A stretch of 64,000 bases of DNA, taken from positions 1 to 64,000 of the IMG/VR virus record IMGVR_UViG_3300005732_000005. One strand, given 5' to 3'. Under the pieces are notes generated by a model. It did not search any database, was not told the origin of the DNA, and saw only the letters and a program-made list of their open reading frames with translations. Shown here one piece after another: positions 1-8,244 of the stretch; position 1 is the stretch's first letter; every line of letters starts with the position of its first letter. The position numbers and the translations under genes were made by a program. This DNA comes from a virus.

Positions 1-26
1 GAAACAAAACAACTTAAGAGAACATT

Positions 27-269
27 ATGAAAGTTAAAAACTTAGAGTCACTAAAAGAATTAATCTTTAATGAAGATGTTGTAACTATCCCGTTAGGTTT
101 TACTTATACAGGGTCAGACTGTTACGGGTGCTATCAAGACTTGGTTACAAAAGAGATCTATGTTAGACACTCAGAGAATAGCTTTTATAAATACAATTCT
201 GTAGAAGAAACTATTGCAGAATATAAAGAATTAGGTTATCTAGTTAGTTTTAATTTATTGGATAAATGA
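27..269 (+). CDS. hypothetical early protein
   Basis: ORF with AAGAGA RBS-like element upstream; part of rightward early cluster. Confidence 0.75.
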   Translation: MKVKNLESLKELIFNEDVVTIPLGFTYTGSDCYGCYQDLVTKEIYVRHSENSFYKYNSVEETIAEYKELGYLVSFNLLDK

Positions 270-272
270 ATA

Positions 273-319
273 GTTGCTTTGTTGGGTCGTTTTATAATAA
301 AATGCCTCTTAACAAGGTA
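273..319. repeat. intergenic stem-loop repeat, copy 1
   Basis: TTGCTTTGTTGG..TTTTA-TAA-TAAAATG..TCTTAACAAGGTAA; similar copy at 588-634; each precedes an early ORF. Confidence 0.65.
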
Positions 320-348
320 ATTTAATTTAACTTAAAGAGGGTAATAAA

Positions 349-579
349 ATGACTAATAATAATGAACAGATGTACTTATTGAATGAAAACAGATTTAATA
401 AACCAGCTTTGAATGCCGAAACTAAAGAAGAAATGAAAGGATTAATTAGTCTAGGTTATGGTAATTTTGTAAGAGTACTTGATGACATCTTTGTAACATA
501 TATATCTATAGATCCAATTAGTTGGGAAAAAGAAAGTGTTAGGATGTACAAGGCTTATTTAAACTCAGACATTTTTTAA
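349..579 (+). CDS. hypothetical early protein
   Basis: ORF with GAGGG RBS. Confidence 0.75.
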   Translation: MTNNNEQMYLLNENRFNKPALNAETKEEMKGLISLGYGNFVRVLDDIFVTYISIDPISWEKESVRMYKAYLNSDIF

Positions 580-587
580 ATAAAGGG

Positions 588-634
588 TTGCTTTGTTGGA
601 GCATTTTAAATAAAAATGCTTCTTAACAAGACAA
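588..634. repeat. intergenic stem-loop repeat, copy 2
   Basis: TTGCTTTGTTGGAGCATTTT-AAAT-AAAAATGCTTCTTAACAAGACAA imperfect inverted repeat. Confidence 0.65.
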
Positions 635-655
635 TTTAATTTTTGAGAGAATATT

Positions 656-826
656 ATGAAAAATAAACACTCTTCTAAGCGCCTAGAGCGTCTATTCAAG
701 TTAACAGATACATTACAAGAGAGGACACTTAGAACTAAGTATCTTTTAACCAAACAGGGGCTTTCTAAGGGTGCAGAATTGTATAAGCCGAGGGCTATTG
801 TTAAAACGGTTATTGTGAGGGGCTAA
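656..826 (+). CDS. small basic hypothetical protein (56 aa, MKNKHSSKRLERL...)
   Basis: Hand-translated ORF below the track cut-off; GAGAGA upstream; follows the repeated stem-loop like its neighbour. Confidence 0.55.
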   Translation: MKNKHSSKRLERLFKLTDTLQERTLRTKYLLTKQGLSKGAELYKPRAIVKTVIVRG

Positions 827-1045
827 GTATGAAAATTAATCTAGGGTGTGACGAGTTTACAGCAGATTATTGAGCCTAATCCACATTTTCATTCAGGGAC
901 TAAAATGTATAACCCAAGGTCTAGCTAGCTTTTTCATTCAATAGCTGATTCTAGAAAGGATAATTTCTATAGAGAAAATGGTTTTCATTTGACAGGGGAT
1001 TCTGCAGGAATTAAGGATTTATGAGATAATCTCAATTTTTCTAAA

Positions 1046-1153
1046 TGTTAATTGTTTGTTGTTAGATGTTAATAAATTGTTAACAAGGCTAACAGGAGTT
1101 AACAATTTTAAAATGTTAATCTATTGTGACAAACAATTAACATTTTATTAACA
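1046..1153. promoter_or_regulatory. cluster of ArcA-box-like direct repeats
   Basis: TGTTAA repeats at 11-bp spacing: TGTTAATAAATTGTTAA 1067-1083 (+), TGTTAATAAAATGTTAA 1137-1153 (-), weaker copies at 1046 and 1114. Confidence 0.6.
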
Positions 1154-1232
1154 ATTACATACATTGAAAACAGGTTACGAATGATGGGGAAAGAATTGTT
1201 AAAAGTCAATACTTAATTAGAGGTAAATTAAA

Positions 1233-1421
1233 ATGTACGTTTTATATGATGGTATGCAAGAATCAAGCCAAGATGTTAAAATATACTGCCCTACGTTAAA
1301 GGGTGATTTCTATCTAAGCCCGTGGTTTGCGAGTTACCCAGTTTGGGATAATGATAATTTCTTTTTTATAGAGGGGTTAGGGAATGATGAGTTAAGACTA
1401 TCTACAATGTTAGAGTTCTAG
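1233..1421 (+). CDS. hypothetical protein
   Basis: ORF with GAGGT RBS. Confidence 0.65.
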   Translation: MYVLYDGMQESSQDVKIYCPTLKGDFYLSPWFASYPVWDNDNFFFIEGLGNDELRLSTMLEF

Positions 1422-1703
1422 TAAGTATCATGCCAAAAAGATTAATTTTGTTAGAATAGTTTAGTCCAGAAAATCACCTGTATATAACAAAAATACATAT
1501 ACTGCTGAGACGTCCTGAGAGCCATTCTGAGGGGTTTTTGTGTTTACCCTAACATTGACAGTTTGAAGAGGAGATCTCAATTCGCCAATATATTGGCGGT
1601 GGACATTTGACAAAGTGGCACAGTATTTGCCAGTAAGGGTATTGAGAACAATTCTCATCAAAAAGTGTGCCAAAAATAAATTAAAATAATTTGTTGAAAG
1701 GGG

Positions 1704-1733
1704 TTGCCTGTTTTCAAAATTTAGTGCTAAGAT
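1704..1733 (+). promoter_or_regulatory. early sigma70-type promoter
   Basis: GGG-TTGCCT...TG-C-TAAGAT (extended -10) with AT-rich upstream tract; same design as 2391 and 2731. Confidence 0.6.
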
Positions 1734-1786
1734 CACCCCATCAAGGCAATAAAGCTTTTAACATATTCTATATAGGAATCATTATC

Positions 1787-2341
1787 ATGTTATCACTAAA
1801 TGAAAAAGCAGCTCACTCAGTAACATACTTTGAAGCATTGCAAGCTAACCCAGATAATACAAAACAGTTTGCTATTGAAAAGCTAGGGTATTCAAAAGGT
1901 GAAGCTGAAGAAGTGGTGAAAGTATGGTGTGATTGTTTTGTAGAATTATCTAACGTTATGGAATGGGATCAGATTGTAGAGCTATCACAGGAAACAATCA
2001 CTGAAGAAGAGATCGCCAAGTCACAAAAACAAGATACAACAAAGTCAATTGTTAAGCAATTTATGAGTGACTGGGACAAAGAGTATAAAGCGATAAAGAG
2101 AGTTCAGAAATTACAAGAGGATCTAGACTGGGTTTATAAAACAGAAAAACCATATGAAAGAATTGCTAACAGTTTGAAGCTATGGAAACAAAAACACACC
2201 GATGCTTTCCAAGTGATTAAAGACAAAGTGGTAAAAGGATTGTATACAGAATCAACACTTGATAAGGCTATCGAATTGCACGGAAAGAATGATCTGGGGT
2301 ATGTAATAGACTGTTTTATGGACATGTTAGAAGAGGCATAA
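1787..2341 (+). CDS. hypothetical early protein
   Basis: ORF; start moved to ATG 1787 after the promoter and AGGA RBS. Confidence 0.75.
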   Translation: MLSLNEKAAHSVTYFEALQANPDNTKQFAIEKLGYSKGEAEEVVKVWCDCFVELSNVMEWDQIVELSQETITEEEIAKSQKQDTTKSIVKQFMSDWDKEYKAIKRVQKLQEDLDWVYKTEKPYERIANSLKLWKQKHTDAFQVIKDKVVKGLYTESTLDKAIELHGKNDLGYVIDCFMDMLEEA

Positions 2342-2390
2342 AACCTTTTCTTTTATAACTTTTTATTCTAAGTGAATTTGCTGAAGAGGG

Positions 2391-2418
2391 TTGCACTGCC
2401 CCCAGAATTTGCTATTAT
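2391..2418 (+). promoter_or_regulatory. early sigma70-type promoter
   Basis: GAGGG-TTGCAC-N16-TATTAT with TG extended -10. Confidence 0.6.
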
Positions 2419-2489
2419 TTATATCAAGCAAGGGGGAACAGAGATACACCCCCTCCAAACGAGAATTATTATCAAATAGGAATATTAAG

Positions 2490-2711
2490 ATGAATAAGCA
2501 AGAAACATACCAAATTATCGAACGTTTTTCTAAATTAGTAGATAAATATGAAAACAAACCAAAGTGGCACACTCTTTGCAAGGATGTAGTTTTCTGTGCG
2601 GAGTCTCTAGCACAACAAATCAATCTTGGCAAGGATAAATTTGAAATAAAAGAATATGTTGAAGATGTTAATAATGCAATTGAGAATTGTTATCAACAAG
2701 AAATAATTTAA
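2490..2711 (+). CDS. hypothetical early protein
   Basis: ORF; ATG 2490 after AGGA RBS. Confidence 0.7.
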   Translation: MNKQETYQIIERFSKLVDKYENKPKWHTLCKDVVFCAESLAQQINLGKDKFEIKEYVEDVNNAIENCYQQEII

Positions 2712-2730
2712 AATAAATGTGTTTTGAGGG

Positions 2731-2758
2731 TTGACACCCTCAACCAGTTTGCTATTAT
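2731..2758 (+). promoter_or_regulatory. early sigma70-type promoter
   Basis: GAGGG-TTGACA-N16-TATTAT with TG extended -10. Confidence 0.7.
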
Positions 2759-2799
2759 ATACACATAGACAAGGCGAACAACAAACAGGAAAAAACATT

Positions 2800-3051
2800 A
2801 TGCTTAAATTCAAAAAACACTTTGCGGGTCGTTATATTGCAACACTAGGAACAGCAGTTATAGTAGTTGAGAAGCTGGAAGGGGAGTGGACATCATACCT
2901 TGAAGGGGACATGACAAGGGACACACAAGAGTTCTACCATACAAAAAAGCAAGCTATTGAAACAGTTAACTGCTATGCAAGTAATCCTGACAATGTGAAG
3001 GAATGGCAAGAATACTTAACTGAAGAAGAGGTAAAAGTTTTTCAAATCTAA
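2800..3051 (+). CDS. hypothetical early protein
   Basis: ORF; ATG 2800 after AGGA RBS. Confidence 0.7.
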   Translation: MLKFKKHFAGRYIATLGTAVIVVEKLEGEWTSYLEGDMTRDTQEFYHTKKQAIETVNCYASNPDNVKEWQEYLTEEEVKVFQI

Positions 3052-3070
3052 ATAAGAATCATTATCAACA

Positions 3071-3100
3071 AATGCCACTGTAAAATGTGGCATTCTTTTT
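3071..3100 (+). terminator. rho-independent terminator ending early block
   Basis: AATGCCAC-loop-GTGGCATT followed by CTTTTT. Confidence 0.65.
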
Positions 3101-3110
3101 GCATACTAAA

Positions 3111-3130
3111 TGTTATGTTATAACATAACA
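3111..3130. promoter_or_regulatory. Zur-box-like palindrome
   Basis: TGTTATGTTATAACATAACA contains two overlapping TGTTAT-N3-ATAACA cores; another core TGTTATAGTATAACA at 4578-4592. Confidence 0.55.
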
Positions 3131-3394
3131 AAATCTCTATTCACTTAATGAATAATTCCCACCTATAGCAAGTATCTAGCAAGCTACGTGCCAACTTGAT
3201 TTTACTAAAACACACTCCCTCTGAAAGCCTTATAAATAAAGGGCTAGAGACTTACGTCCTCAAAAGCAATTCCTGAGCATATGCAACACTACCCAATACA
3301 CTAGCTCAGGTTAATTAACCTTGCTCATACAGGCTCTCTCAAGGCGTTATATCTATATAAAACACTTTGGCACAGTATGTGCATATGAATAAAC

Positions 3395-3487
3395 CTTGCA
3401 TATGTATGCAAAAAGTGAATAATTGAGAATAGTTTGCATTTAAAGGTTAATGCATACCTATGCACAAATTGTGCATAAATATCTACC
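3395..3487. promoter_or_regulatory. ARG-box-like sites (ArgR)
   Basis: TGCATATGTATGCA (3397) and tandem 18-mers AATGCATACCTATGCACA-aat-TGTGCATAAATATCTACC with the canonical 3-bp spacer. Confidence 0.5.
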
Positions 3488-4547
3488 CATTATCTACTAC
3501 GTAGATGCAAGTAGTTCTCATTTACAAACAGTTATTAACCATAGGTTAAATGATAATTATTCTTATTACACTAGAACACACATAAATCTAAATGATAATC
3601 ATTACTAAATACGAATAGTTATCATTAATAAACTCTAATAATATCAATAATCTAAATGAGAATTGTTTTTATTTGCAATGTGCAAATGAGAAGTGTTATT
3701 GTTTAAGAATTAATCTTATTTAGAAATGTTAGCGTTTGTTAACATAAATAGTAATTATTCTTATTTAGATTACTTTATTAATCTTTTTAATGAGAATGAT
3801 TCGTATTAATTGATAAATTAAAATGTGGTATGTTGTTTGCATGTAATGCAAGAAGGATACCTCTTTGTTGCTATGCAACATATATGCCAAACTACCTTGA
3901 AAGCCTTTATTTATATAGCCATGGCTATATGAGAGTGATTGTTATTTGCAATTGCAAATTAAAGTAGAATGTTATGTTACATAGTAACAAAAGGGGGATA
4001 TTCGTCAACCTTGTTGACAAAGACAGGGTATTGTGAGAAGGGATAATTGGGGAAGGGGATTGCTGTAGTGGGAGTTGTGGGGGAGAGGGGTTTAACAAAC
4101 CACGAACACTAACACGACAACAACACAAGACCATTCACCTACTGTTACATAGTAACAAAAGTAAACACCATCTATTGCGTAGCAATAAAAGTACACTCTC
4201 TGTTAACATCGTTAACAAATATATAACCTTTCAAACAATAATCCTCTCACAAGCAATAATATCTCTGATGTAAATTAATTGTTAATAAAAGGTATGTTCT
4301 CGTTAACGTAGTTAACAAAGTGTAAACCCCCTTTACAAAATACAACTATTCATCATATCTATGATAAGAAGTATTATATTCATCTAACTAATACGACATA
4401 ATATAGAATATGTTAAATATAGATGAGAATGATTCTTGTTTGGAGGGAATACTTATTCAATAGGAATTGTTGTTATTTGAGAGGGATTCTCATCAACTAC
4501 GTTGATAAAAGAGATACTTGTTGAGAGGGGTTCTTATTTGAGGGAGT

Positions 4548-4940
4548 AGGATATTTTATACGGAAAGTAGGTTGTTATGTTATAGTATAACAAACGTTGA
4601 GCAATGCTCACTTTACTTTCCACTTTTCCATAAATATCATTTACTTACAGATATTCTTCTCCAGATATTTCCACCCTCATACAAGGATATTTCTCCCCCC
4701 AAAATTTTATTTTTGTAATATAGGATATTTTTATATACTCCGTATATAGAGTGTGGTATGCTTTAAAAGGAGGTTAGTATTTTTATTATTTTTAGTATAT
4801 TTACTAAAGGCAAGCCTATTTTTCCTTAATTAAAACAATAACTTACAGAGAGGTTTAGACAAAATAATTTCATTTTGTAGGAGATATTTTTAATGGTTGT
4901 ATATATTTGAAAGTATGTTATTATTAAGAGTAGGATATTT
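4548..4940 (+). repeat. iteron-like direct repeats, candidate replication origin
   Basis: Seven same-strand GATATT(T/C) copies (AGGATATTT at 4548, 4684, 4722, 4932; CAGATATT at 4648, 4662; GAGATATTT at 4881) immediately upstream of a helicase-like gene. Confidence 0.45.
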
Positions 4941-4976
4941 TATTTTTAAAACACACTTAACAGAGGAGAAATATTT

Positions 4977-6257
4977 TTGAAGATAGAACTTATTGATTAC
5001 ATGATGGGTACAGGTAAGAGTAGTTATATTTTGGACAAGGTAGTTGATTGGAGTAATGAAGGTCTTTATGAACAGTTTATCTATATAAGTCCATTACTAA
5101 GTGAAGTAGGTGGTAAACGTAAAGAGAAAGGTAAAGGTTTCTTAAGAGGAAGAGTTCAAGAGAAAGCAGATTGTATGGACTTTAGATACCCTCTTAATAT
5201 ATCAAGTTCAAAACTAGATAGTTTTAGAGATTTACTTTTAAAAGGTAGTAATATTAGTGCTACACACAATGTATTTACAAACCTAACACCTTTAGATGTA
5301 GACCTTATTAAGGAGAGGAAGAATGTTCTCATCATTGATGAGGAAGTACAAGCTTTAGATACATATACAGATTTAGGTGTAAAGCATTTACAAGTATTAA
5401 TCAATGGTGGACAGGTTTATAAGGATGAAACTAACAGGTTATGTTGGAATCACAGATTGTTTCCGCAAACAGAAGATTTCCTAAATAACCCTTCAGAAGA
5501 TACATACTCTAAAAACGATTTACAGTTATCTAAATTCATTAATTTGTGTGATGGTGGTTACCTTCATTCGGTGAATGATAAGATTATGATCTGGGAATAC
5601 CCTATTAGTGTTCTAGAAGCTTTTGATAAAGTTATTGTCATGACTTATATGTTTGAAGCTAGTCCTATGTACTCTTGGTGTAGGATGAATAACGTTGATA
5701 TTGTCAGACTAGATATACCAGAACTTAAATCCAGAGAGGATGAGATAAAAGCGTCTCTAAAGGATTTAGTAACTGTAGTAGAAACCAGTAAGATGAAGAC
5801 AATAGAGAATTTTGGGTATAGTTATTCTTGGTGGAAAGGTACAGGTAGTAACAAAACTTACACAGCAAAGGTTAAAAATGTTTTAGAGGATTGTGTACAG
5901 AACCAATTAAAAGGTTTAAGTTACAAGGACTATATATTCACCTGCCCAGAGAATAGTTTCCCCAAAATTAAGGGTAAGAGATACAGCAGGAGTGACTGGT
6001 TGTATAGTGATTGTAAAGCTACCAACGATTATGCAGACAAGAAGGTTATGTTCTACCTTTACAGTAAGTTCCCTAATGTGTTTATTAGCCCTTTTTGTAA
6101 AGAGAAAGGTGTGAGTATTGACGAAGACATGTATGCCCTCAGTTCTATGCTACAGTGGTTGTGGAGAGGGTGTATCAGGAAAGGAGAACCTATGAAAGTG
6201 GTGATATTAAGTAAGAGAATGAGGGATTTGTTTAAGGAGTGGTTGGATGGAGAATAA
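4977..6257 (+). CDS. SF2 helicase-like / putative origin-binding protein
   Basis: Walker A MGTGKSS, Walker B IIDEE, C-terminal QWLWRGCIR motif VI-like; TTG start with GAGGAG RBS. Confidence 0.7.
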   Translation: MKIELIDYMMGTGKSSYILDKVVDWSNEGLYEQFIYISPLLSEVGGKRKEKGKGFLRGRVQEKADCMDFRYPLNISSSKLDSFRDLLLKGSNISATHNVFTNLTPLDVDLIKERKNVLIIDEEVQALDTYTDLGVKHLQVLINGGQVYKDETNRLCWNHRLFPQTEDFLNNPSEDTYSKNDLQLSKFINLCDGGYLHSVNDKIMIWEYPISVLEAFDKVIVMTYMFEASPMYSWCRMNNVDIVRLDIPELKSREDEIKASLKDLVTVVETSKMKTIENFGYSYSWWKGTGSNKTYTAKVKNVLEDCVQNQLKGLSYKDYIFTCPENSFPKIKGKRYSRSDWLYSDCKATNDYADKKVMFYLYSKFPNVFISPFCKEKGVSIDEDMYALSSMLQWLWRGCIRKGEPMKVVILSKRMRDLFKEWLDGE

Positions 6258-6993
6258 ATACTATGTCTACCAAGTTGTTCACGAAGGAGAAGTAATCTAT
6301 GTGGGTAAGGGTAAAGGTGGCAGATACAAACACGCAACCTCAGGTAAAAGTCATAATTATAAACTAAATGAATTCCATTTTAAACATAAGCTCCTTGGAG
6401 ATGTGTTGCCAGAAGTTGACATTATAAAGTATTTTGAAGAAGAGAAGGATGCTTTAGCTTACGAGTCAAAACTTATACTAGAACACTACCCTTATTGTAA
6501 CATACAGAAGAAAGAGAACGCATTAGATTTGTTTAAGGTCGAGCCTGTTAAAGATGGTGGTACGGAAGGACAAGATTATGTCCCTGTATATGAGGAAGGT
6601 GGGACAGAAAAGGAAGAGTTGGTTTTTCTTCCCACTACTGTAGAAGATGTGGATGATTTAATGAAGAAAAGATATGAAATCTATCTCGAAAACACAGAAC
6701 TTCTACGACCAAATACTTATCGGACATTCTTGAGTAGTCTTTTGTTCAACAAATCTTTGAAGTGGCGCGATATATCGCACCTCATTGAGGAATTGGTAGA
6801 ATCTATCCCAGATATGAGGAAAGATAATGGTGGACATAATAAGAGGGAGTTTGCAATTAAGTATGGTTTGTCTGAAAAAGAGGCTAAGTGTATTAACAAC
6901 AGGACAAATTATCTTAAAAAGAAAGGTAAACCTGTAACAGAAGAAGATTTATTAAAGACATTAGAAAAGTTTAGGAGGAAAAATGGAAAATAA
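6247..6993 (+). CDS. GIY-YIG-domain protein (paralogue 1)
   Basis: YVY..VIYVGKG..RY..H, conserved E and N; C-terminal possible HTH. Confidence 0.65.
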   Translation: MENKYYVYQVVHEGEVIYVGKGKGGRYKHATSGKSHNYKLNEFHFKHKLLGDVLPEVDIIKYFEEEKDALAYESKLILEHYPYCNIQKKENALDLFKVEPVKDGGTEGQDYVPVYEEGGTEKEELVFLPTTVEDVDDLMKKRYEIYLENTELLRPNTYRTFLSSLLFNKSLKWRDISHLIEELVESIPDMRKDNGGHNKREFAIKYGLSEKEAKCINNRTNYLKKKGKPVTEEDLLKTLEKFRRKNGK

Positions 6994-7528
6994 GTATTAT
7001 GTGTATACGGTTAGTGTTGACAATGAAGTGGTTTATGTAGGTAAAGGTAAGAATGACAGAGCTGAGCACGTAACATCAGGTTGCAGTCACAACAAAGGAT
7101 TGAATGAACTTTATTTTAGACATAAGTTGTTAGGAGAAGATTTACCCTTGGTAGAAATTTATTCCTCAGTGTCAGAAAATGTTGCACTAGCAGAAGAGCA
7201 TTTGCTTGTGAAACGCTATAATCCACGATGTAACTCAGCACTTAAAAATACTGATGTTAAACTTTATAATCATTGGGATGATGGAGATATTCTTAGGTAT
7301 ATGGAAGAAAATTGGGACACTAGATCTTTCAGAGACATACCTGAATCGACAGGATTGAGTAATGACCAAAAAGATTGGATTTACGAGAATATTTGTGGAC
7401 ACGAGATTCTTTATGACGAGGAAATACTTTCTATAGCGGTATCTCATAGTAATCTATACGGGAAAGAGATAAGTTGTGAGTTTGTAAGAGCATTGTCTCA
7501 AGTTAGGGATACTAGAGAAGGGAGGTAG
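6983..7528 (+). CDS. GIY-YIG-domain protein (paralogue 2)
   Basis: YVY..VVYVGKG..R..H..E..YNPRCN; N-terminus highly similar to preceding ORF. Confidence 0.65.
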   Translation: MENKYYVYTVSVDNEVVYVGKGKNDRAEHVTSGCSHNKGLNELYFRHKLLGEDLPLVEIYSSVSENVALAEEHLLVKRYNPRCNSALKNTDVKLYNHWDDGDILRYMEENWDTRSFRDIPESTGLSNDQKDWIYENICGHEILYDEEILSIAVSHSNLYGKEISCEFVRALSQVRDTREGR

Positions 7529-7574
7529 AATCCCTTCCCATCCCACCTATGTGTTTTGAGTAATTACAGATAAC

Positions 7575-7597
7575 AAAAAGGAGGCTCACGCCTCCTC
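7575..7597. terminator. terminator hairpin at convergent junction
   Basis: AAAAAGGAGGC-TCAC-GCCTCCT; near-identical hairpin at 14471. Confidence 0.6.
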
Positions 7598-7981
7598 TAC
7601 AACCTCCATCACATCTCCCAAACATTCCCTAATCTTTCGGAACAAAGACTTTCTATTACTAAGTTTTACACTCTCAGAATAACCTACACAGAAACCATGA
7701 TTAGCTCCTAAAGTTTCCGTCACCTTAACACCATTAACTTCAACTAAATATATCCAAGGTATGTTTCCTTTCAATTCAATATCTATACCTATAGAGTTCA
7801 ATCTCCTTTTTAACCTAGTTAAAGGGTGTGTGTGGAACGTATTCACCTCATCACCAACTTCAAGGTTTCTATAATTACTGGACACTTTTGTAAACCTTTC
7901 ACATTTAGATTGTAAATAGTATTCTTTATAAGCTCCGAACCTTGTAGGAATGGTTTCTATTGCTGTTACATAGAATTTCAT
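7586..7981 (-). CDS. hypothetical protein
   Basis: ORF in tightly overlapping leftward run. Confidence 0.7.
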   Translation of the reverse strand: MKFYVTAIETIPTRFGAYKEYYLQSKCERFTKVSSNYRNLEVGDEVNTFHTHPLTRLKRRLNSIGIDIELKGNIPWIYLVEVNGVKVTETLGANHGFCVGYSESVKLSNRKSLFRKIRECLGDVMEVVEEA

Positions 7982-8244
7982 ATCACCTCCTCTCCAAACC
8001 TTCTTTCATACTCAAATTTAAATTTTCCAATCAATACTTCATCTAAGGTAGTATCTTTACAAAACTTCTCTACTTCCCAAGCAGCTATGACATATTTAAT
8101 ATCGTGATACAACCCTTCGTCCACCCATTCGAAAGAGTACTCCATTGCATCAATGTCTGCAAATTTACTACGTGTAGAAAGGGTTACATCTTGGTTGCTG
8201 TATTCGTTACAAGCTTTAATAATTTTTAATGTATCGATATTCAT
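7978..8244 (-). CDS. hypothetical protein
   Basis: ATGA-coupled ORF. Confidence 0.7.
   Translation of the reverse strand: MNIDTLKIIKACNEYSNQDVTLSTRSKFADIDAMEYSFEWVDEGLYHDIKYVIAAWEVEKFCKDTTLDEVLIGKFKFEYERRFGEEVI

Follow-up and report, generated by a model that had tools for sequence, protein, structure and literature searches.

Clustered sigma-54-like sites in the early control region of a marine phage and their recurrence across phage groups

The early control region

Here we examine a cluster of sites matching the -24/-12 consensus of bacterial sigma-54 promoters (TGGCAY-N5-TTGC) near the start of a marine phage genome in IMG/VR (record IMGVR_UViG_3300005732_000005). The stretch analysed, referred to throughout as the window, spans positions 1 to 64,000 of a complete genome of 140,306 bp, the ends of which overlap by 68 bp and give a circular assembly. 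At the level of the portal protein, the phage shares 62% identity with HM1 and J2-1, both Pseudoalteromonas phages, and 42-49% with many Vibrio and Shewanella myophages of 130-150 kb; Pseudoalteromonas, Vibrio and Shewanella are also the hosts of the nearest cultured relatives. The stretch that carries the sites begins with small, rightward-directed early genes in a row, each preceded by a similar sigma-70-type promoter. Three such promoters were found (1704, 2391 and 2731) but one clear terminator (3071-3094), beyond which lies a non-coding region leading up to a P-loop gene:

1704..1733, plus strand: sigma-70-type early promoter TTGCCT-N18-TAAGAT of ORF 1787-2341 (repeat families D10, D13)
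2391-2418 and 2731-2758: promoters resembling the promoter at 1704
3071..3094, plus strand: intrinsic-terminator-like hairpin closing the early gene row
3052..4976, no strand: non-coding control region of 1.9 kb between the early gene row and the YonV_C gene
4977-6257: P-loop gene of the YonV_C family

The non-coding region 3052-4976 contains many short palindromes, Fur-box-like sites and GGATATTT repeats, and the layout of the control region is repeated in J2-1, H101, L023, L026, L029 and L030. DNA searches of window positions 1-8000 and 1000-5000 against cultured phages gave no match, and searches with the protein of 4977-6257 against IMG/VR and the JGI metagenomes returned distant or incomplete loci only. 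All five contigs with a YonV_C gene 73-77% identical to that of the window (L018-L022) end 250-900 bp upstream of the gene, within the non-coding region; repeats, hypervariability or a physical genome end could each account for these breaks in close relatives.

A cluster of sigma-54 consensus sites

Eleven sites were identified in 1255-3889, five of them exact and six near-matches, with five on the plus strand and six on the minus strand. They are given here with the elements that lie among them:

1255..1271, minus strand: sigma-54-like site TTGGCTTGATTCTTGCA, antisense in the 5' end of ORF 1233-1421; matrix score 16.6 bits
1420..1436, minus strand: near-site TTGGCATGATACTTAC / TTGGCATGATACTTACT, with TTAC for TTGC, at the stop codon of ORF 1233-1421
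1511..1534, no strand: conserved element CGTCCTGAGAGCCATTCTGAGGGG, about 85 bp upstream of 1420(-), read by eye
1615..1631, plus strand: exact site GTGGCACAGTATTTGCC, directed to ORF 1787-2341 across its sigma-70 promoter
1641..1659, no strand: Fur-box-like palindrome ATTGAGAACAATTCTCATC between the opposed sites 1616(+) and 1657(-)
1657..1673, minus strand: near-site TTGGCACACTTTTTGA / TTGGCACACTTTTTGAT, a matrix match
2497..2513, minus strand: site TTGGTATGTTTCTTGCT, antisense, just within the start of ORF 2490-2711
2564..2580, plus strand: exact site GTGGCACACTCTTTGCA, within ORF 2490-2711 and directed to ORF 2800-3051
3087..3103, plus strand: exact site GTGGCATTCTTTTTGCA, at the terminator or immediately after it
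3178..3194, minus strand: exact site TTGGCACGTAGCTTGCT, the best in the cluster at 20.8 bits
3367..3383, plus strand: near-site TTGGCACAGTATGTGC / TTGGCACAGTATGTGCA, a matrix match
3825, plus strand: near-site GTGGTATGTTGTTTGC, part of the opposed unit 3825..3890
3825..3890, no strand: opposed unit TGGTAT-N5-TTGC-N7-GCAA-N5-ATACCT followed by TTGC-N3-GCAA-N5-ATGCCA, containing 3825(+) and 3874(-, exact)

The sites are non-random, tied to one spacing and confined to one region. The exact pattern, found at 1616(+), 2565(+), 3088(+), 3179(-) and 3875(-), occurs five times in the 64-kb window against an expectation of 0.09, and none of the whole-window shuffles reached five. As a local control, 1200-4100 was shuffled 5000 times with its dinucleotide content preserved; exact sites then averaged 0.016 (maximum 2, against five observed) and matches to the relaxed pattern TGGYAY-N5-NTGC averaged 0.088 (maximum 2, against eight observed). 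Among the nine TGGCAY words in 1400-3900, five are followed by TTGC at exactly N5 and none at another spacing between 0 and 15, indicating that the two halves form one element and not two frequent words. A weight matrix for the sigma-54 consensus, the scores of which are heuristic, placed 12 of the 33 genome matches at or above 11 bits, and nine of the 15 at or above 13.5 bits, within 1255-4048; it also contributed two of the eleven sites, 1255(-) and 2497(-). The original prediction had reported exact and near-match sites from the sequence alone; every one of its coordinates proved correct, and the large excess of exact matches that it had estimated from composition was upheld by the local shuffles. 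Nor is a comparable density seen elsewhere in the genome, the other 136 kb of which hold a single further exact site, at 134441(+).

With respect to the surrounding genes, the sites form three opposed pairs (1616+/1657-, 3088+/3179- and 3825+/3874-), and four of the minus-strand sites are antisense, inside or at the start or end of rightward genes. Two of the eleven face a plausible gene, 1616(+) in front of ORF 1787-2341 and 2565(+) in front of ORF 2800-3051, in agreement with the earlier remark that the majority are not directed into a nearby gene. Spacers vary freely from site to site; A or T follows the -12 element in 10 of the 11, and T or G precedes TGG in all. The site 3088(+) overlaps the 3' arm and T-run of the terminator hairpin 3071-3094. 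Judged by eye, the near-site 1420(-) is a paralogue of the 3179(-) site, and stretches resembling CGTCCTGAGAGCCATTCTGAGGGG occur at 3254-3277 and in L023, L024, J2-1 and H101.

Recurrence in relatives

The clearest parallel among cultured phages is J2-1_QLiu-2017 (MF988720.1), which has its gene layout in common with the window and a YonV_C homologue 34% identical, and shows no DNA similarity to the window. Its genome holds five exact sites, and seven of its 13 matches at or above 13.5 bits fall in 82080-83985, the early and non-coding stretch just upstream of the YonV_C homologue. What J2-1 shares with the window is the feature and not the sequence: the cluster is independent and the region syntenic. 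In other cultured relatives, the exact site is absent from HM1, 424E50-1, 501E54-1, 1.170.O and RYC, and one or two relaxed TGGYAY sites each were found in H101, helene, Shewanella 1/40, 11895-B1, 1.121.O and FelixO1. These low counts indicate that the background is close to zero and that the cluster is not a family trait.

Within the metagenomic relative L023, the counterpart of window positions 3040-3340 can be aligned at about 75% identity. The site 3179(-) aligns there with 11539(-) (TTGGTATGTTAATTGCT / TGGTATGTTAATTGC), with GG and TTGC retained and a different spacer, and neither 3088(+) nor 3367(+) is retained. Consensus sites recur at comparable places: H101 and contig L029 have one right after the early-row terminator, as with 3088(+); L024 has two minus-strand sites upstream of its homologue of ORF 1787, and by eye its site 541(-) (TTGGCATGGTATTTGAT) is the counterpart of window 1657(-) in the same place; and L026, L029 and L030 carry one to three sites each in the same gaps. 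The window and L024 share a module of about 450 bp between ORF 1233 and ORF 1787, carrying the sites from 1420(-) to 1657(-), which L023 lacks; the L024 copy has a direct repeat, AAAATTAATT, on its flanks, adjoining TGCCA boxes. This distribution suggests that the boxes move with insertion-deletion modules at cassette borders.

Opposed-site arrays across IMG/VR

Beyond these relatives, the motif recurs in many unrelated phage contigs. IMG/VR was scanned for two exact sites facing each other, either 20-50 or 60-90 bases apart, and each of the two scans returned at least about 120 stretches, while a reversed control pattern gave no match. The 197 listed loci form at least about 100 phage groups, defined as having no common protein at 60% identity, and span about 30-70% G+C. 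Many of them hold 7-11 exact sites within 1 kb, with the unit TGGCAC-N5-TTGC-N3-5-GCAA-N5-GTGCCA repeated in tandem, often near contig ends or between divergent operons; in locus L055, for example, the array occupies the divergent gap between replication genes and lysis-packaging genes. Many array pairs are too tight for two polymerases or for any enhancer, and the window unit 3825-3862 is of the same tight type. At positions left free by the search, the 842 unique IMG/VR sites show T or C before TGG in 79%, G after TGGCAY in 70% and A or T after TTGC in 88%, and these free positions agree with the sigma-54 consensus. Two of the array loci were compared with cultured phages by BLAST without a match, and a conserved-word scan of IMG/VR for module B likewise gave none.

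Candidate readers of the sites

No DNA-binding family within 4 kb of the arrays is common to more than seven of the approximately 100 listed groups, and the only widely shared gene in that range is the large terminase (23 of the approximately 100 listed groups). A universal host protein is therefore more plausible as the reader than a variety of phage proteins. A six-frame profile search of the complete window-phage genome found no match to the activator ATPase domain PF00158 or to the sigma-54 DNA-binding and core-binding domains PF04552 and PF04963: the phage encodes neither sigma-54 nor an activator ATPase, so that the host would have to supply any sigma-54 or any activator that takes part. 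On sites of this kind, sigma-54 polymerase settles into a stable closed complex and does not melt DNA without an AAA+ activator ATPase.

Features that might accompany firing were sought around the sites. Four minus-strand sites, 1420(-), 3179(-), L023 11539(-) and L024 156(-), have a conserved element 60-100 bp upstream, in which no clear dyad is seen and which in H101 stands downstream of the site instead. Words for NtrC, CRP and IHF showed no enrichment, and a LuxO-type enhancer was rejected, the single TTGCA-N3-TGCAA word (at 3673) not being upstream of any site. From 3179(-), a candidate RNA of about 105 nt with three hairpins would extend to a two-way terminator (z = -2.7); its two-sequence fold shows little covariation, and an Rfam search of window positions 1-6000 with E up to 1 found no relevant RNA, Qrr included.

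Other elements of the control region

The sites lie among numerous other palindromic and repeated elements. Of the ten genome matches to the Fur-box-like palindrome AATGAKAATnATTMTCATT with up to three mismatches, nine fall in 1641-4440, and six of these in 3549-3807; L023 has one perfect ATGATAATCATTATC and, by eye, a dozen further Fur-like boxes. Among the listed IMG/VR arrays, Fur-like boxes lie near six of 198, so that the pairing seen in the window is not general. Short perfect palindromes (6-bp arms, centre of 1-5 nt) reach 19-29 per kb in 3050-4650 against 2.35 genome-wide, and over 1.2-4.6 kb their density is roughly tenfold that of the whole genome. In the matching region of L023 and L024 the palindrome arms differ and the centres are similar (GC-TT-GC); by eye this resembles covariation, a hint that hairpins form in RNA or in single-stranded DNA.

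Four of the six genome copies of GGATATTT lie on the plus strand at 4549-4940, just upstream of the YonV_C gene, and GATATTT-type repeats are seen by eye in the same place in J2-1 (L001 8360-8500), L023 (12720-13440) and H101 (L230 5560-5690); these iteron-like repeats may mark an origin or a middle promoter. Perfect DnaA boxes (TTATCCACA / TGTGGATAA) were noted by eye in J2-1 (three, L001 6470-6650) and L024 (seven, 320-500 and 2000-2090), in modules homologous to window positions 1421-1700; the window itself has none. The palindrome TATTCAC-N3-4-GTGAATA, also read by eye, occurs at window 3138-3154, L023 11773-11790, L024 415-432 and L001 6562-6580, and its retention in four phages with little DNA in common makes it a candidate operator, to be bound by a conserved protein of the phage or the host. 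Outside the window, positions 134010-134940 form another non-coding gap, about 0.9 kb long, which contains the exact site 134441(+) together with a run of direct repeats and the palindrome TGTTATAACATAACA, which is also present at window 3116 and in J2-1. The region is thus crowded with sites resembling those of host proteins, as would be expected of a decoy and also of an elaborate control region or origin.

Discussion

We tentatively favour the view that the clustered sites are docking sites for the host sigma-54 RNA polymerase, acting by occupancy as a trap or barrier. From the sequence evidence we infer sigma-54 as the reader and occupancy, rather than firing, as the function; action mainly by being occupied is what the lack of a phage activator and the lack of a gene ahead of most sites would suggest. 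Under this proposal, recognition elements of the host polymerase would have been built into boundary modules consisting of terminator, early sigma-70 promoter and operator-like palindromes, and into the adjoining 1.9-kb non-coding region. Host sigma-54 polymerase would then be held on phage DNA, with a trap capacity rising with genome copy number, and bound sites might also, or instead, mark and insulate cassette boundaries.

Several observations weigh against docking by occupancy. Eleven cultured relatives have zero to two sites per genome, and so the lineage does not need the cluster, which could stem from duplication of boundary modules and not from selection for a trap. The single sites at fixed places beside terminators in H101, L029 and L023 are more like regulatory elements than a sponge, and 3088(+) may partly be a by-product of its terminator. 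Polymerase passing through the strongly transcribed early genes would clear the sites within them, and core polymerase would be trapped along with sigma-54, placing the phage's gain in doubt. The weight matrix, moreover, follows the published consensus and gives heuristic scores.

Some or all of the sites could instead be enhancer-dependent sigma-54 promoters fired by a host activator, a possibility we consider the main rival, if somewhat unlikely. They would then give rise to non-coding or antisense transcripts, or to extra transcription of ORF 1787 and ORF 2800, coupled to a cue from the host, for example its nitrogen status or cell density, RNA damage or envelope stress. The full promoter consensus is present, TTGCW included, and two sites, 1616(+) and 2565(+), are directed at genes. 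A site after the early-row terminator, pointing into the non-coding region, is found in H101 and L029 as well, and 3179(-), from which the three-hairpin RNA could arise, is retained in L023. The conserved element upstream of four minus-strand sites also stands at the usual enhancer distance, yet its lack of a clear dyad and its downstream position in H101 speak against this reading, as do the missing Rfam match and the scant covariation. Furthermore, not every one of the opposed pairs and tight arrays could fire usefully, most sites have no gene ahead, and the phage encodes no activator of its own.

A different reader altogether, such as a phage DNA-binding protein, or an origin of the boxes as recombination marks of mobile regulatory cassettes, would make the likeness to sigma-54 sites incidental. 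We regard this as unlikely, although repeated sigma-70 promoters and a terminator do accompany the boxes at cassette boundaries, several -12 elements form one arm of a short palindrome, and the module of about 450 bp is present in the window and L024 and not in L023, with AAAATTAATT repeats as flanks in L024; promoter-early stem-loops are known to drive shuffling of this sort (PMC2839356). Recombination marks, however, must resemble one another and not a host consensus, whereas the spacers here vary freely, and ten fixed bases together with the free consensus positions are found in at least about 100 groups that have no common DNA-binding gene nearby. That the cluster arose by chance, or as a by-product of local composition, terminators or palindromes, is very improbable: despite the overlap of 3088(+) with the terminator and the richness of the region in TTGCA-type palindromes, the local shuffles, the lack of enrichment at spacings other than N5, the independent cluster in J2-1 and the empty reversed control in IMG/VR all point the other way.

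The original prediction proposed that the sites act as a sink for sigma-54 holoenzyme, or as protein anchors on early-injected DNA. The evidence fits the core of the sink idea, namely that the sites were selected for binding a host factor, in that they are non-random, locked to one spacing, confined to one region, mostly not placed as promoters, unaccompanied by a phage activator and recurrent; the single terminator-side sites fit promoters or boundaries equally well. For the anchor idea we found no support. A broader extension, which we hold to be rather doubtful, is a sigma-54 sponge in many unrelated phage lineages, whereby replicating genomes would absorb scarce host sigma-54 and silence enhancer-dependent programmes; flagella, nitrogen, envelope-stress, RNA-repair and type VI secretion functions would be among those silenced. 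In the window the sponge would lie beside the Fur-like array, making 1.2-4.6 kb a multi-factor decoy region.

The sites are strongly selected in the window phage, in a cultured relative and in at least about 100 uncultured phage groups. Sigma-54 stays silent on its promoters until fired by an ATPase, a property that leaves it uniquely open to trapping by bare DNA and equally suits a virus switch wired to host signals. If the sites are a trap, they would represent a host takeover without any protein, undescribed as far as we have found; if they fire, they would constitute a new class of phage promoters sensing host physiology. J2-1_QLiu-2017 provides a culturable system in which trap and firing can be distinguished.

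A full-text literature search found no virus-borne sigma-factor decoy, no description of sigma-54 site clusters in phages and no account of lytic phages using or disarming the sigma-54 route, and we know of no virus-borne decoy for a sigma factor. Resistance of rpoN mutants to FelixO1 has been traced to glutamine starvation and RpoS (PMC8744999). We considered this rpoN dependence as an effect of clustered sites and rejected it: FelixO1 has one relaxed site and no cluster, so that the published phenotype is unrelated to the clusters described here.

Among known systems, the published consensus of bacterial sigma-54 promoters, such as glnAp2 and pspA, is the obvious reference. Like these promoters, the phage sites have GG and GC elements separated by one helical turn, a TGGCAC-N5-TTGCW core and the same preferences in the flanking bases; they differ in that eleven sites occur within 2.7 kb, on both strands, in opposed pairs and mostly without a downstream gene, in a phage genome with no activator and no recognisable enhancer. 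Intragenic and antisense sigma-54 sites in Salmonella and E. coli are similar in placing the consensus within genes or antisense to them with no obvious regulated gene, but are said to be scattered singly over the chromosome, unlike the approximately 17-fold concentration in one viral control region seen here or the tandem arrays of other phages. As a binding-site array, the cluster resembles the datA locus, which titrates DnaA in E. coli, and the decoy sites reportedly known for response regulators, in that many strong sites for one host protein are unlinked to regulated genes; for the phage, titration is what we propose. T4-type phages carry promoter-early stem-loop cassettes between small non-essential early genes (Arbiol et al. 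2010, PMC2839356). The early row of the window resembles these in its repeated sigma-70 early promoters between small early genes, with one clear stem-loop terminator for three promoters, and in the gain and loss of units between relatives, in a phage that is not T4-like and in which the units also carry Fur-box-like and other palindromes.

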